The translations under genes were made by a program, and so were the position numbers. Shown piece by piece: positions 175 through 16,906 of a stretch of 64,000 bases of DNA. Position 1 is the stretch's first letter, and each line of letters starts with the position of its first letter. The stretch is taken from the NCBI GenBank assembly GCA_022573815.1, contig JACZTG010000001.1, positions 859-64,858 of the forward strand, read 5' to 3'. The notes below the pieces were generated by a model. It saw only the letters and a list, made by a program, of their open reading frames with translations, searched no databases and was not told the origin of the DNA. This DNA is from Fidelibacterota bacterium (GTDB lineage: Bacteria; Fidelibacterota; SORT01).

Positions 175-549
175 ATGGTAGAAGAAGGAAAGGTAACAAT
201 TTTTGTGACGTTCGGACCTGAGATGCCTCAACGGTGCGCTACACCGTTTTATATGGCAAATGTGGCTATGGCTATGGACAATGAGGCGGAAATGATATTT
301 CAGATAGACGGTACGTTGTTACTGAAAAAAGGTGTTGCAGAGGGAATAGTAGCCAAAGAAGGGGGAAAGAAAATAATTGATTTTATAAGAGAAGCAAAAG
401 AAGCAGGTGTGAAAATGCGCGTTTGTTCCGCGTCTCTTCAGCTCCACGATATGACAGAAGATGATTTGATCGAAGAAGTGGACGGCGTGGTAGGAGCCGC
501 TTATATGACAGATGTAGGTATGGACAGCGACTTAGTTTTAAGTTATTAA
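175..549 (+). CDS. DsrE/DsrF/TusD-family sulfur-carrier protein (DsrE3-like)
   Basis: 124 aa. The C-terminal AGVKMRVCSASL is typical of the conserved Cys loop of the DsrE/TusD fold, with a further Cys in QRCATPF. Its position directly upstream of the GcvH-like and hdrCBA genes matches the known sHdr locus context. Confidence 0.55.
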   Translation: MVEEGKVTIFVTFGPEMPQRCATPFYMANVAMAMDNEAEMIFQIDGTLLLKKGVAEGIVAKEGGKKIIDFIREAKEAGVKMRVCSASLQLHDMTEDDLIEEVDGVVGAAYMTDVGMDSDLVLSY

Positions 550-603: not shown

Positions 604-1026
604 ATGTATCATATTGATTTTAACGTTTGGGTCAGGGATAACGGCGATGGCACTCTGAATATCGGCTTGACGGATATAGCGCAAACAATGGCAGGCTCGG
701 TTATTCACTGCATGCCTAAAAAGGTCGGTAAAGTAGTCAAAAAAGGAAAAAGTCTCTCTACAGTTGAAAGCGGGAAATGGGTAGGTCCTATCAAATCACC
801 TTTTGGAGGCGAAATTATCGCCGTAAATGAAGAAGCACAAAAGGATGCCACTATTTTAAATCGAAGTCCTTATAAGGACGGATGGATAGTGCAACTTAAA
901 CCTAATAATTACGAAGAGGATAAAGCCGAATTACATACAGCCGAGGATGCGATACCTCTTTTTGCGGCATATATGTCCGAAAACGATCTGGGGGAATGTA
1001 TTCATTGCGAGGGATTTGAAAGCTGA
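604..1026 (+). CDS. lbpA: Glycine-cleavage-H-like lipoate-binding protein (LbpA-type)
   Basis: 140 aa. TVESGKWVGPIKSPFGGEI matches the GcvH lipoyl-lysine motif (E-S-x-K, with K the lipoylation site) and GcvH-like hybrid-barrel spacing. It sits in the sHdr locus. Confidence 0.6.
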   Translation: MYHIDFNVWVRDNGDGTLNIGLTDIAQTMAGSVIHCMPKKVGKVVKKGKSLSTVESGKWVGPIKSPFGGEIIAVNEEAQKDATILNRSPYKDGWIVQLKPNNYEEDKAELHTAEDAIPLFAAYMSENDLGECIHCEGFES

Positions 1027-1473: not shown

Positions 1474-2112
1474 ATGCGTTGGGATCACATATTCAATGGT
1501 TGTTATGAATGCGGCATCTGTGTAGCAGCGTGCCCTTCAGCAAGGTTCTACGACTTTAGTCCCCGTGTGTTCGTTCAAACTCTCGAGCGGGAAGATATTG
1601 ACACGTTTTATGAACTGATGAATGATTCCGTTTGGGATTGTTCCCAGTGTTTCTCCTGCACTCGCTGTCCGAGGCAGTCAAATCCCGGCGCTCTTATAAC
1701 CGTAATGCGGGAAGTAGCTGTGAACAACGGCCTGCAATCCGCCAAAGATGCGCTGAAATCATACAGTCGAATTATTTATAAAATTATGTCAACCGGAACG
1801 CAGGTGGCTCCTGATATGCTGCAGCCGGATGCGTTCCCCGATTGGGGTCCTCGTGTGAAGGAGATATCCGATAATCTTGAAGATTGGAGAAGAGCAATTC
1901 CGCCCGAGACGCTGCACACAGTTGAGCTCGCATGGGACGTAAGTATAAAAACGCGCTTGGAACTATTTATGATTTGGAAGCTTACAGGAAATCTTGATAT
2001 GATTCAAAATATCGATGAAGGAATATTTATGATACTTGAGGAAGTGATGGAAGAACTCCTTGAAGAACATGGATATGATATTGATGATTATGATAATATC
2101 ATCGATGATTAA
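1474..2112 (+). CDS. hdrC: Heterodisulfide reductase subunit C-like protein (sHdrC1)
   Basis: Two ferredoxin-type motifs: CGICVAACP and CSQCFSCTRCP. It is followed by the hdrB- and hdrA-like genes. Confidence 0.7.
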   Translation: MRWDHIFNGCYECGICVAACPSARFYDFSPRVFVQTLEREDIDTFYELMNDSVWDCSQCFSCTRCPRQSNPGALITVMREVAVNNGLQSAKDALKSYSRIIYKIMSTGTQVAPDMLQPDAFPDWGPRVKEISDNLEDWRRAIPPETLHTVELAWDVSIKTRLELFMIWKLTGNLDMIQNIDEGIFMILEEVMEELLEEHGYDIDDYDNIIDD

Positions 2113-2135: not shown

Positions 2136-3332
2136 ATGTCCGGCATAACAGTGGATTCGGTAATACCTAAGGTAAGCATGAGAAAGTTCGAAAGAACTGA
2201 AGCGCCGCCTACCGAAGATTATAGAGAAAAATTATTCGAGCTGGAAAAAGCGGGCGAAATCGAAGTGATAAGAGTTCCAGAGCCTTACGTGGAAGTCGAA
2301 ACAAAATACGGAAGATTGAAAAAAATCCCGTTGGACCATACCTGGCATCATAAATCATGCGGTCAATGCGGGCATATTCCCGGATATTCAACGGCAATTT
2401 TCTGGCTCAACAGACAATTCGGTTTTGATTATCACGACCCGAGAGACCAGACCTCATGTACTGCATGGAATTATTATGCTTCTGCCACATCAAATTCAGC
2501 CGCTCAGGCATCAGTGGCAGTTCGAAATTTCGCACAGGCAAAAATTGACGGATATTTTCCGATAATCCATTGTGGTACTAGCTACGGACACTATAAAGAA
2601 GTGCGTTCGGATCTGTTGGAATTTCCTGAATTGAGAGAAAAAGTTCGTAAGGTATTAGCCCGAATGGGAAAAACTTTGGTATTCCCGGAAGAGATTGTGC
2701 ATTATTCGGAATGGGTTCACGTGATGCGACATAAAATTGCAGATAGACAAGTTTTGGACTTCAGCAATTTGACGATTACCGTTCATCCGGCGTGCCATTA
2801 TCATAAACTCGTGGTGGAAGACGCTATTTACGATAAAGAGCTATATAATGGTCAGCGAACTGCTATTGTCAGCGGATTGGTTAAGGCGATGGGAGCGAAA
2901 CTCGCTGATTACTCTACGTGGCATGATTGTTGTGGCTTCGGTTTCCGCCATATACTGGTCAGCAGAGATTTTTCACGTTCATTTGCAACATTGAGAAAAA
3001 TCGAAGTAATGATTAAAGAGGCTAACCCGGATCTTACGCTCACTCATGATACGGGCTGCGTGACTACTCTTGATCAGAGTCAGTTTGCCGCCAAAGCCCA
3101 CAACAAAAAAGTCGGAATTCCCGTGATGTCTGATGCTCAATTTGCGGCATTGTCTATGGGAGCGCATCCATTCAAAGTGTGCCAATTACACTGGCATAAT
3201 ATGGAAATAAGAACAATACTCGAAAAAATGGGAATTGATTATGATAAGGCTTGGGCTGAATTTCAGCTACAAGTCGATCGGATCAAGTCCGGAGAAATTG
3301 ATTACCTAACCTGGGAGGATGCAGATGCCTGA
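2136..3332 (+). CDS. hdrB: Heterodisulfide reductase subunit B-like protein (sHdrB1), two CCG domains
   Basis: 398 aa. It has the Cys-rich CCG signatures HKSCGQCGH and WHDCCGFGFRH and overlaps the start of hdrA by 14 nt. Confidence 0.7.
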   Translation: MSGITVDSVIPKVSMRKFERTEAPPTEDYREKLFELEKAGEIEVIRVPEPYVEVETKYGRLKKIPLDHTWHHKSCGQCGHIPGYSTAIFWLNRQFGFDYHDPRDQTSCTAWNYYASATSNSAAQASVAVRNFAQAKIDGYFPIIHCGTSYGHYKEVRSDLLEFPELREKVRKVLARMGKTLVFPEEIVHYSEWVHVMRHKIADRQVLDFSNLTITVHPACHYHKLVVEDAIYDKELYNGQRTAIVSGLVKAMGAKLADYSTWHDCCGFGFRHILVSRDFSRSFATLRKIEVMIKEANPDLTLTHDTGCVTTLDQSQFAAKAHNKKVGIPVMSDAQFAALSMGAHPFKVCQLHWHNMEIRTILEKMGIDYDKAWAEFQLQVDRIKSGEIDYLTWEDADA

Positions 3333-4386
3333 TCTGCCTGTTTTAGTTATCGGGGGAGGTCCGTGCGGGTTGGAGGCGACCCGGGGAATATCAGACCTTG
3401 GATATAATGTCATACTTGTTGATAAAGCCGAGTTTTTAGGCGGAACGCCTATTTCGGCAGACTACGCTGCGCTGACGCCTGATATGAGAAGCGCGGAAGA
3501 CGCTATGAATGAGATGATCGATGCCATAAAAGATAATCCGTTAGTTGACCTTCGCCTGAATTCATCAGTGATCTCGACTGAGGGCGACGCACCTGATTTG
3601 AAAATCGGAATCAAAAATGGAAAGGGTGAAGAAGTGGTAGATGTAGGCAGTGTCATCGTTTCTACCGGCTTTCAGCATTTTGATCCGGGCAAAGAAACAC
3701 AGATGTACGGATATTATGAATACGACGATGTAATAACTCTTGTGGATGTGGAGCGTATGCTGAAGGCGGGTACTTTCGTCCGTCCTTCCACAGGAGAAAA
3801 ACCGAAACAGGTTTGCTTTATCCAATGTGTTGGAAGCAGGGATCGGCAAATAGGAAATCAGTGGTGTTCCAAAGTGTGCTGCGGAGTCGCAACAAAAGAA
3901 GCAATTGAAATCCGGGATATGGTGCCCGATTGCCGGGTATTCGTTTTTTATATCGACATGAGAATGTATGGATTTTGGGAGGACGAGCTCTACTGGAAAG
4001 CGCAGGAAGAAAAACAGGTGAATTTCATCAGAGGCATTGTCACAGAGATAACGATGCGCGGAGATACTCTTGTGGTCAAAGGTGAAGATACTACTATGGG
4101 CAGACCGATGGAGATACCAATGGATGTTGTAATTTTATCAATTGGTATGGAACCGAGTAAAGGCTCAAAAGATATGGCAAAAATCTTCAAATTACCTTTG
4201 GAACCACACGGTTTTATTGAAACGATCGGTGGAGCGCTGAACACGGTTCAAACTTCCGTTAAAGGAGTATTCGCAGCCGGCGCATCCACAGGACCGGCGG
4301 ATTTGGAAGACTCGATATCAATGGGCGGCGCCGCCGCAATGAAGGCGTGCGCATTCATCAGAAAATCACAATTAGAGACTGCCTAA
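3319..4386 (+). CDS. hdrA: HdrA-like FAD-dependent FeS flavoprotein (short sHdrA type without ferredoxin domains)
   Basis: 355 aa. It has an N-terminal VIGGGPCGLEA dinucleotide fold and the HdrA-specific cluster motif CVGSRD...CSKVCC. Confidence 0.7.
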   Translation: MQMPDLPVLVIGGGPCGLEATRGISDLGYNVILVDKAEFLGGTPISADYAALTPDMRSAEDAMNEMIDAIKDNPLVDLRLNSSVISTEGDAPDLKIGIKNGKGEEVVDVGSVIVSTGFQHFDPGKETQMYGYYEYDDVITLVDVERMLKAGTFVRPSTGEKPKQVCFIQCVGSRDRQIGNQWCSKVCCGVATKEAIEIRDMVPDCRVFVFYIDMRMYGFWEDELYWKAQEEKQVNFIRGIVTEITMRGDTLVVKGEDTTMGRPMEIPMDVVILSIGMEPSKGSKDMAKIFKLPLEPHGFIETIGGALNTVQTSVKGVFAAGASTGPADLEDSISMGGAAAMKACAFIRKSQLETA

Positions 4387-4390
4387 CCGA

Positions 4391-5149
4391 TTGCTTTACG
4401 ACTCAATCACATTTAAGGAAATAGTAGATGCGGATTCCGCTCAGGAATTTATGAAAGAAGCAACCAAGCTAGCCAAAACGTGGGAGCTGGAGGATATTGG
4501 GAGAAAGCTCGAGGCTAAAAGCGCGATAATTTCCGGGATTCTTGCAGAGGATAAGATTGATTCGTTAAATGAAGATGATCTAAAAAAGGTCATCGGAATG
4601 ATTTTTACGATTCGCCGTAAAACCAAAAGGATATTGAAAGCGAACGGTCTTGATAATATCAGATCATCAATAACTGATTTACTTTACGGTGAAAAGCGAT
4701 TAGAAGACCGTTTTGATGAATTCGTCAATTCAATAGAATCTGTAGAGATGAAAATGCGGCTCAACTTTGCCGGCGAGCTCCTGCACTATAGCAACCCCGA
4801 TAAATATTGGTTATGGACGAATTGGATTTGGGATCCTGATACTAAAACAGGTTCTCTGCCGTTAGTGATACAGGATTTTTCCAATCTATCGGGAACGTCA
4901 TTAGGGGATACATATTTGCGAGTTGGTAAAGCTACTCTAATGGTGAATGCAGTTGGACATAAGGTAAGTTTTTCGGATATGGCAAAAGGACTTTTCGGAA
5001 CAAATTTATTCTTAGCGTGTGTTTACGCTGTATATATGTACACGGTGTTTAAAGTGAAATTATCTCAAGAATTCAATAGGATTTTACCCGAGTTGGCGGA
5101 ACTGACACAAAGGGTATTGGGTGTTTACCAAATGGAGCTTAAGAACTAA
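4391..5149 (+). CDS. Conserved hypothetical protein occupying the 'hyp' position of shdrC1B1A-hyp-... loci
   Basis: 252 aa with no recognisable motif. The call rests on position only, as I recall the sHdr locus architecture. Its stop overlaps the next gene's ATG by 1 nt. Confidence 0.4.
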   Translation: MLYDSITFKEIVDADSAQEFMKEATKLAKTWELEDIGRKLEAKSAIISGILAEDKIDSLNEDDLKKVIGMIFTIRRKTKRILKANGLDNIRSSITDLLYGEKRLEDRFDEFVNSIESVEMKMRLNFAGELLHYSNPDKYWLWTNWIWDPDTKTGSLPLVIQDFSNLSGTSLGDTYLRVGKATLMVNAVGHKVSFSDMAKGLFGTNLFLACVYAVYMYTVFKVKLSQEFNRILPELAELTQRVLGVYQMELKN

Positions 5150-6444
5150 TGGGAGATCATAAATACGAAAAATTCGTCCAATTAGATAACGCTATTGTTG
5201 ACGGTGTGGACATTTCAGGTGAATGGAACAAGATGTACGAACCCAGGGAAATCATGGAATATGATTTAACTTATCTGGACAAGGTTATTAATACTCCCGG
5301 CGGTGAATCTATGGGTTGGTGCTATCAATGCGCCAAGTGCATAGGCGTTTGTCCCGTAGATAATGTGGGAAGCTACGGGCCGAGAAAGATATACCGGAAA
5401 CTCCAAACCGGTTATAATCTTTTTGAGGAAGCTGATCTTTGGCTCTGTACTTCCTGCAATAACTGTCTGCGTGTATGTCCAAAAGAAGTTGATATGATGA
5501 AGATAATGCCGGCAATTCGCGAGCAAGCTGTCCTTGACGGAAACGTTCCCGAAGAATTGCAGACTATGCTTCAAAACGTAGCCGAATACGGCAATCCGAT
5601 GGGCGAGTCGCCGCGGAAAAGAGTCAAGTGGACAAAAGATTTGGATGAGACTGTTCGCGATCTTACAAAAGAAGAAGATCCCGGCGCTGTTGATGTCCTC
5701 TGGTATGTAAGCGATTATTTCAGCTATCATAATCGCGGTAATGACGCAGCCAAGGCGATGGTTCGTGTATTCAACAAATTGAATATTGATTACGGTATTT
5801 TAGGAAAAGAGGAAAGGTGCGACGGCGATTCTCAGCGGTTAGTAGGAGAATCAGGTCTTTTTGAACAGCTCGCCGAGCATAACGACGGACTCTTTCAGAA
5901 ATTCGAGCATAACACGCTTGTGGTAAGCGACCCTCACGCCTTTAACGCTTTCAAAAACTTCTATCCAAAAGTCACGGGCAATGAGTACAATGTTCAGCAT
6001 TATACTCAATTCCTGTCGGGCAAGGTGGAAGAATTGAAGTCACTCTATACAACGGAATTCAAGAAAAAAGTCACCTTTCATGACCCGTGCTACTTAGGAA
6101 GACACAACGGAGAGTTTGAGGCTCCCCGCGATCTGATAAATTCAATTCCCGGTGTTGAGTTTGTCGAAATGTACAGGAATCGTCAGCAGGGGTATTGTTG
6201 CGGCGGCGGCGGCGGTGGAATGTGGTTAGATGGATTGGTCGCCGATCATACGACCGAACGTCTGTCGGAAAACAGGGTAAAGGAAGCTGTGGAAGTAGGA
6301 GCGGAGGTATTGGTTGTATGCTGTCCCTACGAAGTGTCCCGTTTTGAAGATGCGGTAAAATCAACCAACAATGACGAAAATCTTGAAGTGTGGGATATTA
6401 TTGAGATAATTGATTTCTGCATCTCCGGCGGAGCTGCAGCGTAA
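5149..6444 (+). CDS. Fused HdrC-HdrB-like protein (ferredoxin-type dicluster N-terminus plus CCG domain C-terminus; sHdrB3 / C2B2-fusion-like)
   Basis: CYQCAKCIGVCP and CTSCNNCLRVCP form the 2x[4Fe-4S] region. The C-terminus has HDPCYLGRHNGEFEAPRDL...GYCCGGGGGGMW, a CCG domain. Confidence 0.65.
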   Translation: MGDHKYEKFVQLDNAIVDGVDISGEWNKMYEPREIMEYDLTYLDKVINTPGGESMGWCYQCAKCIGVCPVDNVGSYGPRKIYRKLQTGYNLFEEADLWLCTSCNNCLRVCPKEVDMMKIMPAIREQAVLDGNVPEELQTMLQNVAEYGNPMGESPRKRVKWTKDLDETVRDLTKEEDPGAVDVLWYVSDYFSYHNRGNDAAKAMVRVFNKLNIDYGILGKEERCDGDSQRLVGESGLFEQLAEHNDGLFQKFEHNTLVVSDPHAFNAFKNFYPKVTGNEYNVQHYTQFLSGKVEELKSLYTTEFKKKVTFHDPCYLGRHNGEFEAPRDLINSIPGVEFVEMYRNRQQGYCCGGGGGGMWLDGLVADHTTERLSENRVKEAVEVGAEVLVVCCPYEVSRFEDAVKSTNNDENLEVWDIIEIIDFCISGGAAA

Positions 6445-6497: not shown

Positions 6498-7004
6498 ATG
6501 GAAAATTCACTTGCTGTCAATTTAGCGGATGCATCCTGGCAACGGTTGCGTTCTATGGCATTGGCAACCGAACGGTATGAAAACTTTGTGGCGCTGGGTT
6601 CATCGAATATGTCAGATGATAAAAGTAACGGGAAATGGACACCGAATTTAAAGATAAACCCGCCTGAGGCTCTGGCGCTGGATTATCTGTCTATGACCAT
6701 AAGAGACGCGTTTGAAAGAGAAAATTCTGAGATAATGCTCCAACTTTCAGGAACCGAGCAAATCCAGCCTCTGGCTTTATCCGAGAAATTGGGAATGGCA
6801 GAACTTTCCTTGAGAGAAAGACTCGGAAATCTTTCTCAATGCGGATTAGTAATGAAAAATCTTGAGAGCGGGGGATATTTACTTACCGATGCGGGTGACG
6901 CTGTTGCGAACCTGATTCGAGATGCGGTGACCAATTTATCCCTGCGGATCGAGAAGGAACTCCCGGAACTCAATATAAAAAAAGAAGAACTCAAACATTG
7001 CTGA
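6498..7004 (+). CDS. Putative winged-helix transcriptional regulator (ArsR/MarR-like fold suspected)
   Basis: 168 aa. The segment IQPLALSEKLGMAELSLRERLGNLSQCGLVMKNLESGGYLLTD resembles an HTH followed by a wing. sHdr loci are known to carry ArsR-type repressors. This is a weak pattern-only call. Confidence 0.3.
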   Translation: MENSLAVNLADASWQRLRSMALATERYENFVALGSSNMSDDKSNGKWTPNLKINPPEALALDYLSMTIRDAFERENSEIMLQLSGTEQIQPLALSEKLGMAELSLRERLGNLSQCGLVMKNLESGGYLLTDAGDAVANLIRDAVTNLSLRIEKELPELNIKKEELKHC

Positions 7005-7241: not shown

Positions 7242-7985
7242 TTGAAAATAGTTGTTCCAATGCAATTAGTGCCTGATTTAGTGGAAGACCTTGAAGTAGA
7301 TAACACAGGAAAGGCTTTAAATGAGGAAGATCTAAAATTAAAACTTAATGAATTTGACGATCACGCTCTCGAAGAAGCGATACAGCTGAAGGAATCGGAC
7401 GGCGCTGAAGTGGTGGCGATGACTCTTGACGGAGAAGGCGCAGACAAACTTCTTTTTACCGCTCTGGCAAAAGGCGCCGACAAATGTCTGAAGATAACGG
7501 GTGCCGCAGCATCTGATTCACATCAACGGGCAAAGGTTTTTGCCAATGCTATCAGTTCCGAAGGTTACGATCTTGTGCTTACGGGTGTTCAATCAGTGGA
7601 CGATAGAGACGGTCAGCTGGGTCCTATCTTGGCAACTTATCTCGATGTTCCAAGCGTGAGCGTTGTTTCTAATGTCTCGATATCCGGTAGCACGGTAACT
7701 CTCCGCAAGGAATATTCAGGCGGCTACATGGCTGAGTATGATGTTGAAACGCCTGCTGTGCTTGGAATACAAGCCGCGCGGCAAACGCCGCGATATGCTC
7801 CTGTGAGTAAGATAAAACAGATACAGGAAACTATGAGTATTGACAATACGGAGGCTGGAGATTCAGGGTCAGGAAGTGGAAGCGAAATCACGAAAATGGC
7901 GCCCCCTGCAAAGGGAGAAGGAGCAAAGATGCTTGATTCTGTTGACGAGCTGATTGAAGTGCTGAAAAATGCGGGCGCACTTTAG
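7242..7985 (+). CDS. etfB: Electron transfer flavoprotein beta subunit
   Basis: 247 aa. It has an EtfB-like N-terminus (MKIVVPMQLVPD...), the usual size, and is followed by etfA. Confidence 0.75.
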   Translation: MKIVVPMQLVPDLVEDLEVDNTGKALNEEDLKLKLNEFDDHALEEAIQLKESDGAEVVAMTLDGEGADKLLFTALAKGADKCLKITGAAASDSHQRAKVFANAISSEGYDLVLTGVQSVDDRDGQLGPILATYLDVPSVSVVSNVSISGSTVTLRKEYSGGYMAEYDVETPAVLGIQAARQTPRYAPVSKIKQIQETMSIDNTEAGDSGSGSGSEITKMAPPAKGEGAKMLDSVDELIEVLKNAGAL

Positions 7986-8036: not shown

Positions 8037-8972
8037 ATGAGCGAACTTTTTGTAGTAACTGAACATCTTAATGGCGATTTCCAGGATATAACGTTTGAAA
8101 TGTTAGGAAAAGCAAAGGAATTGTCAAACGGTGGGAAATGTACAGCCATTGTATTTGGGAATATGAAAGATAAATATGCGGAATTGGGAGCTGCCGATAA
8201 TGTTTTATCCGTAGGTGGAAGCAGCGAATATAATCCCGAAGAATATGCCGCAGCGGTGAAGTCGGCTGTGAGTGAGAAGAATCCGGATTTAGTTCTAATA
8301 GGTTCAACCTCAATGGGGATGGACATCGCATCTCCGGTGGGTACGGGTCTCAATATTCCTGTGGTAGCGTATTGTACGGCTATTGAAGCGTCTGATGGCG
8401 GTTTTTCGTGTACAAGTCAACTTTACGGCGGCAAGATGGACGTGGTTTCTAATGTTCCTTCGCCGGCTATAGTTATGGTGAGTTCCGGAGCGTTCGATGC
8501 CGCAGCAGGAAAAGTTTCCGGTTCGCCCGCCGTTGAAGAATTCAGCGGCGACGCAGGTGCCGGCAAGGTGACGTTCAAATCGCTTATTGAGCCGGAAGCA
8601 GCCGATGTTGACATCACTCAAAGTAATATTATAGTGGCGATCGGAAGAGGAATAGGAAGTAAGGATGATGTAGAAGTTGCTGAAGAGATCGCCGAAGCTT
8701 TGAACGCCGATGTTGCCGGAACAAGACCGCTTATAGATGCGGGTTGGCTGCCGAAATCAAGGCAGGTAGGGAAATCCGGGCTAAAAGTTAAGCCTAAGGT
8801 TTATATCGCTCTCGGAATATCAGGCGCTCCCGAACATATAGAGGGAATGAAAGAATCGTCCACTATAATCGCGATTAACACTGACAAAAACGCTCCGATT
8901 TTCGACGTGGCTCATTATGGAATGACGGAAGACCTTTTTGACGTGTGTGAGGATTTATTGGATAAACTGTAA
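8037..8972 (+). CDS. etfA: Electron transfer flavoprotein alpha subunit
   Basis: 311 aa. The C-terminal FAD-binding region VYIALGISGAPEHIEGM matches the EtfA signature. Confidence 0.75.
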   Translation: MSELFVVTEHLNGDFQDITFEMLGKAKELSNGGKCTAIVFGNMKDKYAELGAADNVLSVGGSSEYNPEEYAAAVKSAVSEKNPDLVLIGSTSMGMDIASPVGTGLNIPVVAYCTAIEASDGGFSCTSQLYGGKMDVVSNVPSPAIVMVSSGAFDAAAGKVSGSPAVEEFSGDAGAGKVTFKSLIEPEAADVDITQSNIIVAIGRGIGSKDDVEVAEEIAEALNADVAGTRPLIDAGWLPKSRQVGKSGLKVKPKVYIALGISGAPEHIEGMKESSTIIAINTDKNAPIFDVAHYGMTEDLFDVCEDLLDKL

Positions 8973-9051: not shown

Positions 9052-11097
9052 TTGTTAACGCAAACAGAACAGATAGCGTTTATACTTCTCACCGTTGTTA
9101 GCATAGCGTTTGCATGGCGTGGTTTCAGCCGATTATTCAAGATTGTCAAGAGTGGAGCTGATACCGACCGGAGCGACGGATTAAGCGTCAGATTCATAAA
9201 GGCTCTTTTTGAAGTTGGAATTCAGAAACCTGTCTTTAAAGCCCGTCGCTGGGTAAGCGTTTTTCACTCATTCATCTTTTTCGGGTTCAGCTTTTACCTC
9301 TTGGTGAACGTGAATGACATCTTGGAAGCGTATGTTGACGGGTGGCATCTTATCGGAGCCGGTACCTTAGCCGGAGTGTTCAATCTCTTTGCGGACATAT
9401 TCAGCATCTTCGTTATTGTCGGAATGAATTTTTTTCTTTATCGGCGATTTGTTACAAAACCGAAAGAACTTGGTTACAACGATAATGTTATGCTTCATCC
9501 CGGTGTAGATTCAGGGGGAATAAAACGGGATTCTCTGTTAGTGGGTGTGTTTATTCTGTTGCATGTGGGCTCAAGATGGCTCGGCACTGTTTTCCATATA
9601 GCGGAATTGGGGCATGGCGATCCGTGGCTTCCTATTGCCAATTTATTTGCGCCTCTCTTTTCATTTATGAGCCATGAGTCCCTTGAAATTGCGATTCATA
9701 TTACGTGGTGGCTTGCAATGGGTTTGATAGTAATTTTTATACCGTATTTCCCGAGGAGCAAACATCTTCATCTAATGGTTGCGCCTGTCAACTTAGCGTT
9801 AGGGCGAAAAACTCCCCCAGGGAGGATGGACGATGTACTGAATATATCTTCTCCGGGAGCTGCGTCTCTCACCGACCTTCCTTGGCCGCAGGTGCTGGAC
9901 GCTTATGCCTGTATAATGTGTAACAGATGTCAGGAAGTCTGTCCCGCTCACACGTCAGGAACTCCACTGAGTCCAGCGGCGTTGGAGATAAACAAGCGGT
10001 ATTTTATCAACGAAAAAGGCGATGAAGTTCTCAACGGCGCAGGCGCGCAAAGTCTGATCGATTATGCTATTTCAGATGAAGCCGTATGGGCCTGCACAAC
10101 CTGCTATGCGTGCGTTCAGGTCTGTCCGGTGGGAAACGAGCCTCTTATGGATATACTGGAATTACGTCGGAATATGGTTTTTGACGGTAGGATGCCGGAC
10201 GAGCTTGCCGATGTGCTTCGGAGCTTAGACGAGCAGGGCAATTCGTTCAGGGAATCTGCAAGAAGGCGAACGCGTTGGACGAAGGATTTAGATTTTGAAA
10301 TAAAAGACGCTAAATCGGAACCCGTGAAGTATTTATGGTATGTAGGCGATTTTGCGTCATACAACCAATCGTGCAGGGACGTGAGCAGAAAATTAGCGCG
10401 GATTCTCCATTCGGCGGGAGTGGATTTCGGAATTATTATGAAAGGCGAAAAATCTGCGGGCAACGATGTTCGCAGGGTTGGCGAAGAAGGATTATTCGAA
10501 GCATTGGCGGAAGAAAATATTGAAACTCTCGCTCAGTGCGATTACGAGGAGATTTTTACTACCGATCCTCATACATATAACGCGCTGCATAACGAATACG
10601 GAAAATTTGGCGCTGAATATAAGATTAAACACTACTCCACACTGTTGAATGAGCTGATTGAAAGCGGAATGATAGAAATTAAAAAGAAAATCGACGCAAA
10701 AGCCACTTATCACGATCCATGCTATCTCGGTCGTTATAACGGAAATTATGAAGCTCCGCGTGACTTGATGAAAAGTTGCGGGGTAGAGCTGGTAGAGATG
10801 CCTCGGAACAGAGAAAACTCTTTCTGCTGCGGCGCGGGAGGCGGAAGAATCTGGATGAAAGACCACGATGATATGACACAGCGTCCGAGTGAGAACAGAA
10901 TAGAGGAGGCGATGGCTCTCGGTGGGATCGAATATTTCACAGTTTCCTGTCCGAAGGACTTTACGATGTATTCCGATGCGGTGAAAACATCCGGCAACGA
11001 AGGGAAGATAGAAGTCAGGGATATTGTTGATTATCTGATGGAAGCAATGGATTTACATGAAGAATCTGCGGCGAAAGAACCTCTGATTACAGAATAG
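9052..11097 (+). CDS. Membrane-anchored HdrD/DsrK-like FeS/CCG oxidoreductase (candidate Etf:quinone oxidoreductase, Emo-like)
   Basis: 681 aa with a TTG start. The N-terminal ~250 aa form 5-6 hydrophobic helices. Then come CIMCNRCQEVCP and CTTCYACVQVCP (two [4Fe-4S] motifs) and a C-terminal CCG domain, YHDPCYLGRYNGNYEAPRDL...FCCGAGGG. Confidence 0.6.
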   Translation: MLTQTEQIAFILLTVVSIAFAWRGFSRLFKIVKSGADTDRSDGLSVRFIKALFEVGIQKPVFKARRWVSVFHSFIFFGFSFYLLVNVNDILEAYVDGWHLIGAGTLAGVFNLFADIFSIFVIVGMNFFLYRRFVTKPKELGYNDNVMLHPGVDSGGIKRDSLLVGVFILLHVGSRWLGTVFHIAELGHGDPWLPIANLFAPLFSFMSHESLEIAIHITWWLAMGLIVIFIPYFPRSKHLHLMVAPVNLALGRKTPPGRMDDVLNISSPGAASLTDLPWPQVLDAYACIMCNRCQEVCPAHTSGTPLSPAALEINKRYFINEKGDEVLNGAGAQSLIDYAISDEAVWACTTCYACVQVCPVGNEPLMDILELRRNMVFDGRMPDELADVLRSLDEQGNSFRESARRRTRWTKDLDFEIKDAKSEPVKYLWYVGDFASYNQSCRDVSRKLARILHSAGVDFGIIMKGEKSAGNDVRRVGEEGLFEALAEENIETLAQCDYEEIFTTDPHTYNALHNEYGKFGAEYKIKHYSTLLNELIESGMIEIKKKIDAKATYHDPCYLGRYNGNYEAPRDLMKSCGVELVEMPRNRENSFCCGAGGGRIWMKDHDDMTQRPSENRIEEAMALGGIEYFTVSCPKDFTMYSDAVKTSGNEGKIEVRDIVDYLMEAMDLHEESAAKEPLITE

Positions 11098-11106
11098 GAG
11101 AGAAGT

Positions 11107-11553
11107 ATGAGCGACAGCACACAACTAAAATTTCCTGCCGACCGATATTACCATTCATCCAATCATATGTGGGCTAAGGAGACGGATGAAAACGGTGAAA
11201 TACTGGTAGGCATTGATGCGTTAGCGCTCGATTCGCTGGGTGAAATAGCCTATGCGTCTTTTGTTGAGATAAATACGGAAGTTAAAGCAGGCGACTCTAT
11301 CGGTACGCTTGAATCCGCCAAGATGACCACCGAAATATTCTCTCCCATATCCGGCGTGGTATCAGCTGTGAACGACATAGTACCGGAAACTCCGCTGCTT
11401 ATCAACGAACAGCCCTACGGTGAGGGTTGGCTGGTTGTTATCCGTGCGTCAGCTTGGGAAGCTGAATGCGCTGATTTAATATCTGGCGAAGAGATTTTTG
11501 AATGGTCACAGAATGAAATCGCAAGATATGAAACGGAAAATAATCAGAACTGA
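11107..11553 (+). CDS. lbpA: Second GcvH-like lipoate-binding protein (LbpA paralog)
   Basis: 148 aa. GTLESAKMTTEIFSPISGVV carries the lipoyl-lysine motif. Its TGATG overlap couples it to the downstream ligase gene. Confidence 0.6.
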   Translation: MSDSTQLKFPADRYYHSSNHMWAKETDENGEILVGIDALALDSLGEIAYASFVEINTEVKAGDSIGTLESAKMTTEIFSPISGVVSAVNDIVPETPLLINEQPYGEGWLVVIRASAWEAECADLISGEEIFEWSQNEIARYETENNQN

Positions 11554-12677
11554 TGGACTTGCGTCTTATAAAAGAGAACGGAGTCAGTGGCAGTTCCGGT
11601 TTAGCTGCTGACGAATCAATGGCTCTCAGGGTGGGGAGTGAAAAATCCCGTCCAACCCTAAGGCTCTATACCTATGATTCCTACAGCGCTCTTGTAGGAA
11701 GATTCCAAAACATTCAGAAAGAACTTAATCTCGAATATTGTCTCCAAAACTGTGTGGAATTTAACAGGCGACCCACAGGCGGAGGCGCAATTATTATGGG
11801 CGCAGACCAGCTCGGCGTCGCGTTAGCGTTGAAAGGAAACAAAACCGATACATATCATCGCGCTCGAGTATTGATGAAACAGTTTTCTGAGGGAACGGTG
11901 AAAACGCTTTCGAAGTTCGGTATCGAAGCTTCGTTCCGCGGGAAGAATGATATTGAGGTTGATGGAAGAAAAATCGCCGGATTGGGACTGCATAAAACAA
12001 GGACAGGCGGTCTTCTTTTTCACGCTTCAATTCTTGTAAACCTTGACGTGGAGCTAATGCTCAACGTATTGAGAACTCCCCTTAAAAGAATAACTGATAA
12101 AGCGGTTAAACTCGTTTCCGGCAGGATTACAACTGTGCGTAAACTTTTATCAAATGATATAACTGTAGATGAATTCAGCGCCGAGTTGGAAAAAGGTTTT
12201 TCTAAAGTATTCGGAGTAAATCTGATAAAGGGAGACTGGAGCAGTGAAGAAATCGGAGAATCTAATAAGTTGGAAGCAGAAAAATATCTGACAGAAAAAT
12301 GGATCTATTCTAAATCAAATGTCAAGGAGATGAATGGGAGAGCGGTCAGAAAAACAGAGGGTGGATTATTAGAGGTATCTGTAAATTTAGCGGGAAACAC
12401 GCTCAAAAAAGTGCAGATCGGCGGAGACATTTACGTTTCCGAAAACGCGCTGGCAGATTTGGAGTTCAGCCTCGCCTGGCATTCCGCTGCCTCTGATAAG
12501 ATAAAGGAAACTTTGAAACGGGTGTATAAAAAAAGAGAAAATGAATTTTCCAGGATCAGCTTTGATGACTTATATAACGGCGTACAGGATGCTGTGAAAG
12601 ACGCTTCTAATAACAGAACGGATATTGAAACCATGCCTTACGGCTGTTTCGTTAAAACGGATGGAAGTTATGCCTGA
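11553..12677 (+). CDS. lplA: Lipoate-protein ligase A-like enzyme (sLpl(AB)-type), with a C-terminal accessory domain
   Basis: 374 aa. NRRPTGGGAIIMG and IEVDGRKIAGLG match the BPL/LplA/LipB catalytic domain, including the conserved Lys. Confidence 0.65.
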   Translation: MDLRLIKENGVSGSSGLAADESMALRVGSEKSRPTLRLYTYDSYSALVGRFQNIQKELNLEYCLQNCVEFNRRPTGGGAIIMGADQLGVALALKGNKTDTYHRARVLMKQFSEGTVKTLSKFGIEASFRGKNDIEVDGRKIAGLGLHKTRTGGLLFHASILVNLDVELMLNVLRTPLKRITDKAVKLVSGRITTVRKLLSNDITVDEFSAELEKGFSKVFGVNLIKGDWSSEEIGESNKLEAEKYLTEKWIYSKSNVKEMNGRAVRKTEGGLLEVSVNLAGNTLKKVQIGGDIYVSENALADLEFSLAWHSAASDKIKETLKRVYKKRENEFSRISFDDLYNGVQDAVKDASNNRTDIETMPYGCFVKTDGSYA

Positions 12678-13644
12678 GCTCCTAACTCTGCCGGAAAATG
12701 TGACCGAGTTCCAAGTTGACCCGAATTGTATGTCTATTCGTCGGAGGAATTTTTCAAACGAAATTACTTTTCATATGCCCGGCCTCAAGACGCACCGGAC
12801 TTCAGAAATTGAAGGTTCATTGACGGAATTTGTTTCTCTGAGTGTGACGGGTTCAGCCTGCGCATTGAGCTGCGAGCACTGCAAAACGGAAGTGCTGAAG
12901 GGAATGGTGGATCTGACAGCCGAAGGGGGTTCTTTATATGATACCTGCCAGCGATTAGCGGAAAAGGGCGCACGGGGAGTTTTGGTCTCAGGCGGCAGTG
13001 ACCTGAAAGGCAGAGTCCCACTGTTGCAGCACGTGCCCGATTTGATAAGGATTCGAAAGGAATTAGGTTTGATTATTCGTTTGCATGTCGGACTTCCCGA
13101 CGAGGAAACGTGCGCGGCTATCTCGGAAATCGGCATAGACGGAGCGATGCTGGATATCATCGGTGATCAGGAAACAATATCCGATGTCTATCATCTGTCG
13201 GCTACGCCGGATGATTACGGAATGGCATTGGAAAATCTACAGCGATACAATGTGCCGACAATTCCGCATATTATCATCGGGCATTATTTCGGAAAGATGA
13301 AAGGTGAATGGAACGCGCTTCAGATGATTAAGAATAACCCGCCGAAAATTTTGGTACTGGTAATATTGATGCCGCTCACGGGAACGCCTATGGCAAACGT
13401 TTTACCTCCTTCAATGGACGAAATCGGATTGTTTTTTCAGACAGCCCGGATTGCATTACCAGAGACTCCTGTTATGCTGGGATGCGCCAAGCCGATAGGC
13501 GAAATGAAGCTGGGAGTAGATAAATTAGCCCTTGAAACGGGATTGAACGGAATCGCTTACCCCGCTGACGGGATAGTGGGTCAATCCGAACAACTCGGAT
13601 TAAAGCCGAATATCGTAAATGCTTGTTGTGGAGTAACCTGGTAA
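12661..13644 (+). CDS. Radical SAM protein (LipS1/LipS2-type lipoyl synthase candidate)
   Basis: The CALSCEHC motif (CxxxCxxC) lies near the N-terminus. I moved the start to ATG 12661 (MEVMPELL), which removes most of the overlap with the ligase gene. The longest ORF begins at 12625. Confidence 0.5.
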   Translation: MEVMPELLTLPENVTEFQVDPNCMSIRRRNFSNEITFHMPGLKTHRTSEIEGSLTEFVSLSVTGSACALSCEHCKTEVLKGMVDLTAEGGSLYDTCQRLAEKGARGVLVSGGSDLKGRVPLLQHVPDLIRIRKELGLIIRLHVGLPDEETCAAISEIGIDGAMLDIIGDQETISDVYHLSATPDDYGMALENLQRYNVPTIPHIIIGHYFGKMKGEWNALQMIKNNPPKILVLVILMPLTGTPMANVLPPSMDEIGLFFQTARIALPETPVMLGCAKPIGEMKLGVDKLALETGLNGIAYPADGIVGQSEQLGLKPNIVNACCGVTW

Positions 13645-13655
13645 AAGGGATAATA

Positions 13656-14747
13656 ATGGCAACTGAGATGTTAGCTCTGAGTGAGCAAAAGGAAATGCGG
13701 AATTTAAGCCCCGATTATGTGAGGATAAGCGCGGCGGCGGCAATCGAGCTGGGGCTAAAGCCGGGTCGGCTTGACAGGTGTAACTGTGGATGTATCAACT
13801 TGCTTCAGAATTATCCTGAAGGCTGTTACGCGAATTGCAGCTATTGCGGATTGGCCAGGGAACGTCCCGGTATTGCAGAAGAAAATTCGTTTATCAGAGT
13901 TGATTGGCCCCTTTATCCAACGGAGCAGGTGGCGGAGAAAATAGCTGAAAGGGAAGCGAATGGCGGGGTCGGAAGAGTTTGTATTGCGCAGGTGCAGGAT
14001 CATCGGGCAAACGCAGATCTTCTAAGTATGACGAAAATTGTTCACAGCGCGGCTCCTGACGTGCCTATCTCTGCTTTGGTTACAGCGACACTGATGGACA
14101 GACAGGTTCTTGCGGAGATAAAAGAAGCCGGAGCGGATATTATCGGAATCGGGATGGACGCCGCCACAGAAGAGATTTTTTATAATACCCGCGGAAAAGG
14201 CGCAAAGGGTCCCCACGATTGGAATTATCACTGGGAAATTGTAAATCTTGCCCGCGAGATGTACGGCGCTTATAAAGTGAATTGCCATATCATCATCGGA
14301 TTGGGCGAGACCGACAGGGATTTGACGAACATCTTTTATAAATGTAAGGAAGAGCAGTTGTCGTGCTACCTGTTCTCATTCAATCCTGAGCCGGGAACGG
14401 CATTGCAGGATTCGGAACGTCAGCCGATAGCCAGGCATCGGCGTATTCAGCTGGTCAAACAGTTGATAGAAAATAATGGACTTTCAAAAGACGCATTGGA
14501 ATTTGATAAAAACGGATTTATCTCGAATATAGATTATTCCGCTGATATTATTAATTTAACAGTGAATGAAGGAATCGCGTTTATGACGGACGGATGTCCC
14601 GATAGAGATGGTGTGATGGCGTGCAACAGACCATGCGGTTCCTACAGACCCGGAGAGGAATTCCGGGATTATCCATTTCCGCCAATGTCGAAAGATATAG
14701 AAGTGATTCAAAACGAGATGCGTCTAAATGAGGTAATCACCGCGTAA
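13656..14747 (+). CDS. Radical SAM protein with an extra N-terminal Cys cluster (LipS1/LipS2-type candidate)
   Basis: CYANCSYC is the radical SAM CxxxCxxC motif, preceded by the CNCGC extra Cys cluster and followed by a second Cys group (CPDRDGVMACNRPC). The start was set at ATG 13656, which has an aaagggataata RBS. The longest ORF begins at 13623. Confidence 0.5.
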   Translation: MATEMLALSEQKEMRNLSPDYVRISAAAAIELGLKPGRLDRCNCGCINLLQNYPEGCYANCSYCGLARERPGIAEENSFIRVDWPLYPTEQVAEKIAEREANGGVGRVCIAQVQDHRANADLLSMTKIVHSAAPDVPISALVTATLMDRQVLAEIKEAGADIIGIGMDAATEEIFYNTRGKGAKGPHDWNYHWEIVNLAREMYGAYKVNCHIIIGLGETDRDLTNIFYKCKEEQLSCYLFSFNPEPGTALQDSERQPIARHRRIQLVKQLIENNGLSKDALEFDKNGFISNIDYSADIINLTVNEGIAFMTDGCPDRDGVMACNRPCGSYRPGEEFRDYPFPPMSKDIEVIQNEMRLNEVITA

Positions 14748-14750
14748 ATT

Positions 14751-15743
14751 ATGGTAAAACCGATACGATTGATAGATTTAGGAGCGATTGACGGCATAAT
14801 GACTCAGGCGGTGTATCACGCGGTAGCGGAGAAAATGGATGAGTCAACGCCCGATACCATAATACTGAACAGCACAAAATCTCCGTATGTTTGTTTTGGC
14901 TATCATCAGGATGCGGAAAGTGTCATAGATTTGGATGTGTGCAGAAAATTAAATGTACCTGCGGTTCGCCGTAAATTGGGCGGAGGCGCTACTTATCTTG
15001 ATGAAAATCAGCTCTTTTACCAGCTGGTATTTCAAAAATCGGAATTGCCGGCAAATTTCAGGAATGTTTATGCGAAAATGTTGGAAGCGCCCGTGAAAAC
15101 CCTAAAATCGTTTGGACTTAACGCAAAACTAAAAGATATAAACGAGATAGAGGTTGACGGCAAACGGATTGCCGGAACGGGTGGCGGGCAAATAGGCGAT
15201 GCGTGTGTTGTTGTGGGGAACTTTTTATTCGATTTCGATTTTGAAGCTATGTCTTCATTATGGAAAGCTCCATGGGATTCTTTCCGAACACTTGCGGGAA
15301 AAGCGCTTAGGAACCACATTACAACTCTTTGGGAATACGACAGTTCATTCAGCAAAGAAATCATATCGTCGCAACTGATAATAGATTTTTCAGCTGTTTT
15401 TCAAAGACCGATTCAGCCGGGAGAATTAACTTCAGATGAGAAAGAACTCTCGGAGGAATTATCTGAGAAATTGAGCTCAACAGAGTTTGTTGTTGATACC
15501 AATAAAAACGGTGCGTCGCCAAGACCGCTTAAAATTTCTAACGGAGTTTTTATACACGCTGAAAATTATTCTTTGGGAGTAAATAGAATACGCGGCAGCT
15601 TTACGGTGGCAAATAATTTCATAGAAGAATCAATAATCGAGCTGCGGAATGGCAATTTATGGGAAGCAATTGATGTTGATCTTTATGGAATAGAGATTGC
15701 TGATTGGACAAATCATATTAAAATTGAATTGCGTGCTGCCTGA
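14751..15743 (+). CDS. Second LplA/LipB-family protein (lipoate/octanoyl transferase paralog)
   Basis: 330 aa. RRKLGGGATYLDENQLFYQ and IEVDGKRIAGTG parallel the motifs of the ligase at 11553. Confidence 0.5.
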   Translation: MVKPIRLIDLGAIDGIMTQAVYHAVAEKMDESTPDTIILNSTKSPYVCFGYHQDAESVIDLDVCRKLNVPAVRRKLGGGATYLDENQLFYQLVFQKSELPANFRNVYAKMLEAPVKTLKSFGLNAKLKDINEIEVDGKRIAGTGGGQIGDACVVVGNFLFDFDFEAMSSLWKAPWDSFRTLAGKALRNHITTLWEYDSSFSKEIISSQLIIDFSAVFQRPIQPGELTSDEKELSEELSEKLSSTEFVVDTNKNGASPRPLKISNGVFIHAENYSLGVNRIRGSFTVANNFIEESIIELRNGNLWEAIDVDLYGIEIADWTNHIKIELRAA

Positions 15744-16906
15744 TGGTTAAACTGCTAAAAAAATATCTGTCTGACCCGTTCCTGAAGCGGCTTTACAGTG
15801 AGATTCGAAAAGCAGGCTCTCTCCGGTCCATCTCTGTGGACATCACTCACGAGTGCAATATCCGGTGCAGAGGGTGTTATTTTTTCAGCGAGGGAATGGA
15901 AGAGTCTGAGTCTCCTCCCGATGAAAACAAATTTGATGCGTTTATAGAACGAGAGCTCGAACGGGGAACTAATTTTGTCACTGTTGTGGGAGGCGAACCG
16001 AGTCTCATGCTGGGGAGACTGAAAAAACTTCATTCAAATTTTCATATAAATGTTTCAACAAACGGTCTTATAAAAATACCATATGAAGGGTTCGAGTCAA
16101 TGCCTATCGGTGTTTCGGTATGGGGAGATAATCAGACAGACAGATATATGCGAGGCGGCGGAAACGTTGATACATTCGCGATAGCGCTGAAGAATTACAA
16201 AGACGATCCAAGAGCGTTCTGGTACTATACTGTGGCTCCGGGACGGAAGAATGAGATTGAGCGGGTAGTGGAGAAGTGTATAAACAACGGTAATCAGGTT
16301 TTATTTAATTTTTACGGCGATTTGTTAGGATTTGGCGGGGAATTGGATTCCGGCAGCGGTTTTGACGAAGTGAGAATTGAGATAGACCGAATGATCAGCC
16401 TCTACCCTGATAAGATGTTTATGAGTTCTTACCTGAGTAAAATCGTTTCAACAGGCACTTTATACGGTTTGAAATGGGGACATGAAGTATGCACGAGTTT
16501 GAGCGCGAATCACGAGGCGAATTTCGAAAGATTGAAAAACGGAAATCCTTATAACCCGCACTTCAGAGCTTATAATGCTGATTTGGAATCTACTCGTAGA
16601 TGCTGTACCGGAATCAACCGTTCGTGCCATACTTGTTTCGATGTCTGGGAGCATTTTTCGTGGGTAATTCTCAATATGAAAAAACATATCGGATCTAAGC
16701 AGGAATTCAGTAACTGGCTAACGACTATGTATCTGTTTTATCTTATAAACCGATTGGTGAATTTTGATGAAGGGATCAAGCTACTGCCGGAAATCCACAA
16801 ACGGCTTGGAAATACGACTAAGAGAGAATCACATAATATAGATAGAATCAAAATTTCTGCTTTCGCTACCGTGGAAAGCGGGTTAATGGAGATTACCGAT
16901 CCCTGA
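15743..16906 (+). CDS. Third radical SAM enzyme, carrying an additional C-terminal Cys cluster
   Basis: ITHECNIRCRGCYF is the radical SAM motif. The C-terminal RRCCTGINRSCHTCFD cluster could hold an auxiliary FeS cluster. Confidence 0.5.
   Translation: MVKLLKKYLSDPFLKRLYSEIRKAGSLRSISVDITHECNIRCRGCYFFSEGMEESESPPDENKFDAFIERELERGTNFVTVVGGEPSLMLGRLKKLHSNFHINVSTNGLIKIPYEGFESMPIGVSVWGDNQTDRYMRGGGNVDTFAIALKNYKDDPRAFWYYTVAPGRKNEIERVVEKCINNGNQVLFNFYGDLLGFGGELDSGSGFDEVRIEIDRMISLYPDKMFMSSYLSKIVSTGTLYGLKWGHEVCTSLSANHEANFERLKNGNPYNPHFRAYNADLESTRRCCTGINRSCHTCFDVWEHFSWVILNMKKHIGSKQEFSNWLTTMYLFYLINRLVNFDEGIKLLPEIHKRLGNTTKRESHNIDRIKISAFATVESGLMEITDP

Follow-up and report, generated by a model that had tools for sequence, protein, structure and literature searches.

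The stretch of DNA analyzed here, referred to as the window, comprises 64,000 nucleotides from a Fidelibacterota bacterium (GenBank assembly GCA_022573815.1, contig JACZTG010000001.1, positions 859 to 64,858 of the forward strand). It contains a gene cluster for an sHdr system of sulfur oxidation, together with genes for an electron-transfer flavoprotein (ETF, EtfAB) and for an ETF:(methyl)menaquinone oxidoreductase (EMO). The subject of this work is the open reading frame (ORF) at 5149..6444 on the + strand, the product of which joins an HdrC-like and an HdrB-like domain in a single chain. The gene encodes the bona fide sHdrB3 of a type II sHdr cluster, and the fusion as such is already known. 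Comparison of its domains places the C-terminal half with the noncubane-cluster domains of EMO and EtfD, which bears on the role the protein may play.

The shdrB3 gene and its locus

Type II systems have been defined by the presence of shdrC1B1AHB3 and etfAB in one syntenic cluster (Tanabe et al. 2024, PMC11094781), and the published arrangement is shdrC1B1AHB3-etfAB-emo (PMC11094781; PMC11582611 concurs). The name sHdrB3 was introduced in 2024 for a fusion of sHdrC2 and sHdrB2 that binds only one noncubane cluster (PMC11094781, PMC11582611); we have taken this definition second-hand from the two papers, the primary source being Kuempel et al. 2024. Marinisomatota are among the phyla listed with type II systems (PMC11094781). 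The cluster in the window is organized as follows.

175..549, + strand: DsrE-family sulfur transferase
604..1026, + strand: lbpA copy 1, GcvH-like lipoate-binding protein
1088-1375: thioredoxin-like gene
1474..2112, + strand: shdrC1; HdrC families, 46-47% identity to type I sHdrC1
2136..3332, + strand: shdrB1, proposed catalytic subunit; HdrB families, 50-51% identity to type I sHdrB1
3319..4386, + strand: shdrA, short HdrA-like flavoprotein; HdrA families, 40-42% identity to type I sHdrA
4391..5149, + strand: shdrH, conserved hypothetical protein of 252 amino acids; no Pfam match, 24-27% identity to the type I gene in the same position
5149..6444, + strand: shdrB3, soluble Fe-S protein of 431 amino acids with an HdrC-like dicluster domain and a noncubane-cluster domain assigned to the EMO/EtfD type; Pfam, homologues, AlphaFold2 (AF2) model and fold match
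6498..7004, + strand: ORF of 168 amino acids between shdrB3 and etfB
7242..7985, + strand: etfB; family matches, nearest solved structure the non-bifurcating Methylophilus ETF 1O94
8037..8972, + strand: etfA; family matches
9052..11097, + strand: emo, EMO-like protein of 681 amino acids with about five transmembrane (TM) segments, dicluster and CCG domains; soluble module paralogous to sHdrB3
11107..11553, + strand: lbpA copy 2; family matches
11553-12677 and 14751-15743, + strand: lipoate-protein ligase-like genes
12625-13644, + strand: LipS1; 230.6 bits, at the curated cut-off
13623-14747, + strand: LipS2
15743-16906, + strand: further radical-SAM gene; weak viperin/SPASM-type matches only

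The sHdr and etf genes follow one another in the order C1 (1474), B1 (2136), A (3319), H (4391), B3 (5149), etfB (7242) and etfA (8037), and are accompanied by emo, lbpA and genes for lipoate maturation. The product of 5149-6444 combines an HdrC-like domain for two [4Fe-4S] clusters with an HdrB-like CCG domain in one polypeptide, and it retains a single noncubane site, since the first CCG sub-domain keeps C224 only and the second is complete. As gene order and protein families match the published definition of type II, the gene is identified as shdrB3; it shares its position, the fused dicluster and CCG architecture and the single noncubane site with sHdrB3 of other type II systems. The original prediction had noted a resemblance to sHdrB3 of type II loci, and the gene order bears it out. 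Compared with sHdrB3 as usually described, a fusion of sHdrC2 and sHdrB2, the protein differs in that its C-terminal half groups with the noncubane-cluster domains of EMO and EtfD, and there is otherwise no material difference. Its membership in a sulfane-sulfur-oxidizing sHdrAA'C1B1B3 complex is putative.

The ORF is intact, with an ATG start and 431 codons for 431 amino acids, and its start overlaps the stop codon of shdrH by one base (TAATG), an arrangement typical of translational coupling in an operon. Type I loci carry two separate genes at the equivalent position, so that an assembly or sequencing artefact masking hdrC2 and hdrB2 had to be considered, but the chance of this is negligible. 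At least five independent contigs, which come from different assemblies, encode the identical protein under the same gene call; its database entry is MCH8927090.1 ('(Fe-S)-binding protein'), belonging to a metagenome-assembled genome (MAG) of Candidatus Marinimicrobia (Neomarinimicrobiota). The best named matches had pointed to Marine Group II archaea as the origin of the window, a reading that this exact match overturned. The 120 best homologues are 398-450 amino acids long (median 431) and nearly all full length, and the fused proteins EtfD, EMO and TfrB align with sHdrB3 continuously over the whole length. When 1.84 billion cluster representatives were searched exhaustively, the sHdrB3 family formed one 50%-identity cluster and all the next-nearest full-length relatives were fused too, being either soluble (about 380-415 amino acids) or membrane-anchored (about 640-780 amino acids), while the few short matches (50-68% identity) aligned end to end and resembled contig-edge fragments. 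A frameshift or a pair of hidden genes at 5149-6444 was ruled out by the contig copies, the homologue lengths and the fused representatives. Hence the earlier proposal of one 431-amino-acid polypeptide with HdrC and HdrB domains holds, with its motifs at the positions given below; that proposal would have fallen had orthologues consistently carried two separate genes, and they carry the fusion.

Loci with the same gene order were found in Chloroherpeton thalassium (71% identity to the window sHdrB3), Thalassarchaeaceae (72%) and Myxococcales, and in part in Armatimonadota. Proteins of Poseidoniia are 74-76% identical to the window sHdrB3 and another Marinimicrobia protein is 69% identical. The window protein is thus closer to those of Marine Group II and Chloroherpeton than to this second Marinimicrobia protein, which suggests that the whole type II cluster may have moved by inter-domain horizontal transfer among marine plankton. 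In the Armatimonadota MAG (locus L094, 8001-10620) shdrB3 and etfB are followed by a thioredoxin-like gene that replaces etfA and emo; this layout is either a variant of type II or an assembly problem of the MAG.

Several neighboring genes deserve mention. The 168-amino-acid ORF gives a weak, sub-threshold match to the HVO_A0261 N-terminal (winged-helix-like) family; it is present in two near-identical contigs (L004, L005) and absent at the equivalent position in Chloroherpeton, Thalassarchaeaceae and Myxococcales. The lipoate block at 11553-16906 contains one ligase and one radical-SAM gene beyond the canonical sLpl(AB)-LipS1-LipS2 set. Adjoining the sHdr cluster on the + strand are genes for a membrane protein in which Fer4_11 and NrfD are fused (17948-19531) and for a molybdopterin oxidoreductase of 952 amino acids (19536-22394), whose best NCBIfam matches are of the PhsA/DmsA type, far under the cut-offs. 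The same Fe-S/NrfD and molybdopterin pair stands beside type II clusters in Thalassarchaeaceae and Myxococcales (L002, 15009-19154; L095, 1-2712), and it looks like a conserved partner, possibly a SoeABC-like sulfite:quinone or Psr/Phs-like enzyme in which the B and C subunits are fused.

Domains, cluster ligands and affinities of the two halves

The following features were delimited within shdrB3.

5167..5298, + strand: N-terminal extension, residues ~7-50, VDGVDISGEWNKMYEPR...; hidden Markov model (HMM) of residues 1-50, and BLASTP alignment to sHdrC2 from residue 7
5320..5355, + strand: first CxxCxxCxxxCP motif, C58/C61/C64/C68; 100% conserved, equivalent to cubane-cluster ligands of EtfD
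5446..5481, + strand: second CxxCxxCxxxCP motif, C100/C103/C106/C110; aligned to EtfD C412/C415/C418/C422
5689..5958, + strand: degenerate first CCG-like sub-domain, residues 181-270, carrying H263 (nt 5935-5937); alignment to EtfD ligands
6070..6327, + strand: intact CCG domain, residues 308-393, with C314, C350-C351 and C391-C392; PF02754, E 5e-20, and conservation

The protein has 15 cysteines, eight of them in the ferredoxin motifs (CYQCAKCIGVCP, residues 58-69, and CTSCNNCLRVCP, residues 100-111), five in the CCG domain (with GYCCGGGGGGMW at residues 348-359), and two outside these, C224 and C424. Pfam recognizes a 4Fe-4S dicluster domain at 58-115 and exactly one CCG domain, so that of the two CCG sub-domains of HdrB-type proteins one is intact and the other degenerate. 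This pattern of motifs and domains is far beyond chance. When the query was aligned to the 120 best homologues (121 sequences), the eight ferredoxin cysteines and C314, C350, C351 and C392 are conserved in 99-100% and C391 in 98%, while C224 (76%) and C424 (71%) vary. No TM segment was found in sHdrB3 (maximum KD19 1.21), as against the approximately five of the window EMO, and the AF2 model is confident (pLDDT 87.7).

The cluster ligands of EtfD (PMC13083937) were transferred to sHdrB3 through a HMMER alignment. The two cubane clusters map to C58-C110. The ligands of the noncubane cluster D2 (EtfD Cys637, 672, 673, 709 and His583) correspond to C314, C350, C351, C392 and H263, and Cys712 falls opposite a gap; the linear [3Fe-4S] cluster D1 (EtfD Cys503, 538, 581 and 584) corresponds to D189, C224, D261 and A264, and this site is lost. 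The histidine is invariant in sHdrB3 and occurs in 138 of the 139 full-length EMO/HdrD-like relatives; residues 308-393 with H263 are predicted to form a His-capped noncubane [4Fe-4S] site. The last ligand motif is CxxC in 107/139 of these relatives; sHdrB3 does not have the second cysteine, but C391 directly precedes C392, and such a 'CC' is present in 98% of sHdrB3 against one of the 139 relatives. C391 may be a relocated fifth cluster ligand. Position 344 (nt 6178-6180), six residues ahead of the CC in the CCG motif, is Asn in the window protein and 10 close relatives and Cys in 88% of sHdrB3 homologues: an extra cysteine that is otherwise widely conserved has been lost in this lineage.

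For comparison with type I systems, an sHdrB1 homologue from an Acidithiobacillus plasmid was aligned with type II sHdrB1s and used for a scan of GTDB genomes. The scan returned 80 proteobacterial loci, among which 38 full-length ones show the order C1-B1-A-H-C2 (238-256 amino acids)-B2 (~303 amino acids); the type I comparison set is composed of Pseudomonadota only. The plasmid itself, from A. ferrooxidans, could not supply a type I cluster, as its sHdrB1-like gene is an orphan lacking C2 and B2, and was kept as the seed of the scan. On this plasmid (NZ_CP040512.1; L006, 5705-10194) the orphan product is 51% identical to the window sHdrB1 and neighbors GcvH/LbpA-like, thioredoxin, hemerythrin and globin genes, with no other sHdr subunits.

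In type I loci (e.g. those of Thioalkalivibrio, Ectothiorhodospira and Sulfuriferula; L020, L045, L033) sHdrC2 and sHdrB2 occupy the same slot after shdrH, and the N-terminal half of sHdrB3 is homologous to sHdrC2, the extension included. With a profile of residues 1-150, sHdrC2 scored 105-111 bits, the window EMO 45 and sHdrC1 43; hhalign gave E 3.5e-29 with sHdrC2, and the identity to sHdrC2 is 34-38%. The HMM of the extension recognized 34/34 type I sHdrC2, at 46-51 bits, as well as three short fragments of sHdrB3, and found no match among the 139 EMO/HdrD-like relatives, sHdrC1 or the window EMO. Orthology of the N-terminal half with sHdrC2 is thus indicated when the half is taken as a whole, but the core at residues 51-150 is ambiguous by itself, and the only part that these comparisons show to be specific to sHdrC2 is the N-terminal extension (~7-50).

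The C-terminal half gave a different result. A profile of residues 165-431 scored 273 bits on the window EMO and up to 337 on the fused relatives among the cluster representatives (337 on the soluble P0126, 332 on P0127 of 745 amino acids), and in the 38 type I loci it matched neither sHdrB2 nor any other ORF, even at E<=10. With hhalign the alignment to the noncubane-cluster (NCB) domain of EMO extended over 253 columns (E 2e-107, score 691), and that to a 25-sequence sHdrB2 profile covered the second CCG sub-domain only (E 3e-5, score 42). Between sHdrB3 and the soluble part of the EMO whose gene lies 2.6 kb downstream the identity is 36% (E 3e-87), and BLASTP detected no significant similarity between sHdrB3 and sHdrB1. 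The best solved relative by sequence is Mycobacterium smegmatis EtfD (9OJN, E 2e-52), which is also the best fold match of the AF2 model (Foldseek E 8.5e-24, TM-score 0.69), while the fold matches to HdrB (14-18% identity) and HdrC (27%) each cover their own half only. Among NCBIfam models TfrB was best (E 7e-42), HdrB reached 7e-4, and partial similarity extended to DsrK, HmcF and TmcB; all scores lay far under the curated cut-offs.

Measured against an sHdrB2 set drawn from Pseudomonadota only, the C-terminal half is therefore not closest to sHdrB2. Judged from these alignments and profiles it is an NCB domain of the EMO/EtfD type and not of the sHdrB2 type, and the usual shorthand 'fusion of sHdrC2 and sHdrB2' may not hold for this half. 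Type I sHdrB2 is only remotely related to it. That subunit is a separate protein of 303 amino acids with at least 10 cysteines; both of its CCG motifs are complete, with CNGC and CPTC at their ends, and it has no capping histidine. sHdrB3 shares with EMO and EtfD (9OJN; EMO of Syntrophus aciditrophicus) the two cubane clusters, the proximal noncubane cluster, the capping histidine and the adjacency of etfAB. It differs from them in the lack of the membrane domain at the N-terminus, which carries heme b and the quinone site, in the lack of the distal cluster (linear [3Fe-4S] or [4Fe-5S]), in a last ligand motif that reads CC instead of CxxC, and in the presence of the sHdrC2-type extension.

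A single chain with dicluster and NCB domains is also the architecture of HdrD, TfrB and GlpC-type proteins, but the NCBIfam scores exclude sHdrB3 from these equivalogs. HdrD has both CCG motifs with 10 cysteines, against five cysteines in one motif of sHdrB3, and a cytochrome partner, HdrE; no such partner is encoded in the cluster, where the sole membrane heme-type domain lies within EMO. The original prediction of an HdrD-like arrangement ending in an HdrB half is supported, with qualifications: the fold covers HdrC and HdrB in one chain as it does in HdrD and EtfD, and one complete CCG domain is present, but the second CCG motif and HdrE are lacking and the domain is by sequence of the EMO/EtfD and not of the sHdrB2 type.

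Proposed role of sHdrB3 in electron transfer

Our preferred reading, which we consider fairly probable, is that sHdrB3, standing in for sHdrC2 and sHdrB2, would act not as a disulfide reductase but as a non-catalytic adaptor through which electrons leave sHdrA for EtfAB, EMO and menaquinone. Electrons released by oxidation of sulfane sulfur at sHdrB1 would pass through sHdrC1 to sHdrA. The extension is common only to sHdrB3 and sHdrC2, and is therefore a candidate anchor that could attach sHdrB3 to the sHdrA core. The pair of cubane clusters would then link sHdrA to the His-capped, non-catalytic noncubane [4Fe-4S] cluster (C314, C350, C351, C392 and H263, plus the sHdrB3-specific C391), and the EMO-type domain would dock EtfAB, sHdrB3 thereby serving as the ETF reductase. 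From the flavin of EtfAB the electrons would proceed to EMO and menaquinone.

The window Etf is nearest to the non-bifurcating ETF of Methylophilus (1O94). The latter is reduced by a [4Fe-4S] cluster, that of trimethylamine dehydrogenase. The operon encodes no acyl-CoA dehydrogenase or other conventional ETF reductase apart from the candidate sHdrB3, EMO being an ETF oxidase; with an ETF and its oxidase present and no conventional reductase, the simplest wiring makes sHdrB3 the reductase. In the cryo-EM structure of S. aciditrophicus EMO with EtfAB the ETF docks on the cytoplasmic domain, with its flavin 12-13 Å from the NCB clusters. A route by way of EtfAB and EMO to menaquinone has been proposed for type II systems (PMC11094781). 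The distal cluster is missing from FadF and DgcB as well, and the authors of the EtfD study argue from these two proteins, which would take up electrons at the proximal noncubane cluster, that this cluster can be the site facing ETF (PMC13083937). The fusion had been suggested in the original prediction to mark where electrons enter from Etf; a contact with Etf agrees with homology and with the adjacency of etfBA, but the direction is likely the opposite one, out to Etf and EMO.

Flow in the reverse direction, in which EtfAB reduced by oxidation of organic substrates would donate through sHdrB3 into the sHdr core and drive a reductive or confurcating reaction at sHdrA/sHdrB1, appears to us improbable. 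HdrA-type flavoproteins can either bifurcate or confurcate, the NCB domain accepts electrons from ETF in all characterized relatives (EMO, EtfD), and Marinimicrobia and archaea of Marine Group II (MGII) are largely heterotrophs, so that reduced ETF would be available. On the other hand, the operon contains a dedicated ETF oxidase in the form of EMO and no ETF reductase of the conventional kind, the Etf resembles non-bifurcating ETFs, the context of DsrE, LbpA, LipS1/S2 and the Mo-enzyme is that of oxidative sulfur metabolism, and the flow proposed in the literature is outward (PMC11094781).

The other alternative to the adaptor role assigns to sHdrB3 the task given to sHdrB2 in type I systems, that of a catalytic thiol/disulfide or persulfide oxidoreductase like HdrB, HdrD or DsrK, whose single noncubane cluster would act directly on the dithiol/disulfide of lipoate bound to LbpA or on a protein persulfide. 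We regard it as unlikely, though less so than the reversed flow. Two lbpA genes flank the cluster, the conserved extra C391 beside a cluster ligand could be a redox-active thiol, and partial NCBIfam similarity links the protein to DsrK, HmcF and TmcB. These three proteins use one noncubane cluster catalytically. In the literature sHdrB3 is treated as the replacement of sHdrC2B2, with sHdrB2 as a probable disulfide reductase (PMC11094781). Against such a role, the C-terminal half resembles type I sHdrB2 only remotely (no HMM match; hhalign E 3e-5), and it belongs to the clade of EMO and EtfD, in which the clusters are shielded and non-catalytic in two structures. Moreover, sHdrB3 invariably has the histidine by which the substrate site is blocked (in S. 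aciditrophicus EMO its counterpart, H534, blocks or occupies the site that in Hdr binds the CoM substrate), and the second cluster, needed for homolytic disulfide cleavage of the Hdr type, is absent.

Several points weigh against the adaptor role we prefer. In proteins such as DsrK a single noncubane cluster is catalytic, so that possession of one cluster alone does not exclude catalysis, and C391, which is specific to sHdrB3, could place the cluster in a different and possibly reactive environment. The putative contacts of sHdrB3 with ETF and with sHdrA are drawn from homology and gene neighborhood, and the literature searched contained no biochemical or structural work on type II sHdr complexes. 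Over the ferredoxin core (51-150) sHdrC2 and soluble HdrD-like proteins are about equally close to sHdrB3, the type I sHdrB2 comparison was confined to Pseudomonadota, and the Armatimonadota locus has etfB but neither etfA nor emo after shdrB3.

Soluble modules of the sHdrB3/EMO clade recur beside EtfAB. The nearest relative outside sHdrB3, P0126 (45-47% identity), is soluble, has no N-terminal extension and belongs to a cassette with the order B3-like-etfB-etfA-emo and no sHdr genes nearby, in which each of the four genes is orthologous to its counterpart in the window, with 39-45% identity; another soluble relative, P0157, is encoded between etfBA and hdrA-hdrC-hdrB. P0126 and sHdrB3 are closer to one another than either is to an EMO, and the duplication into soluble protein and EMO therefore predates the split of the sHdr-linked and sHdr-free cassettes. 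The sHdr-free cassette was observed at L087-L089 (6001-11008 in L087), with two-component regulators on its flanks. A further proposal, for which we put the odds at about even, is that sHdrB3, instead of sHdrC2 and sHdrB2 simply joined end to end, is a chimera-like adaptor in which a module of the EMO/EtfD type travelling with etfBA-emo as a four-gene cassette has been provided with an sHdrC2-specific extension that would plug the cassette into the sHdrA core.

Implications for type II sHdr systems

The fused protein itself adds nothing new, being a standard component of type II systems in a phylum already listed with them. What remains of value is the assignment of its C-terminal half to the EMO/EtfD type, apparently His-capped and part of a portable B3-like-etfBA-emo cassette. 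The identity of this half bears on whether type II complexes can be expected to have a second active site for disulfide reduction, and the comparison at the level of domains gives a concrete, testable wiring model, with sHdrB3 as a His-capped, non-catalytic adaptor that would reduce ETF. Should the chimera proposal be true, type II sHdr would consist of the catalytic half of type I (C1-B1-A-H) and a recruited module for electron exit to ETF and quinone, and of the paired paralogous NCB domains that of sHdrB3 would reduce ETF and that of EMO would oxidize it. The locus also confirms that this Marinimicrobia genome possesses a complete cytoplasmic sHdr-LbpA pathway of sulfur oxidation, with EtfAB and EMO as its probable connection to the quinone pool.

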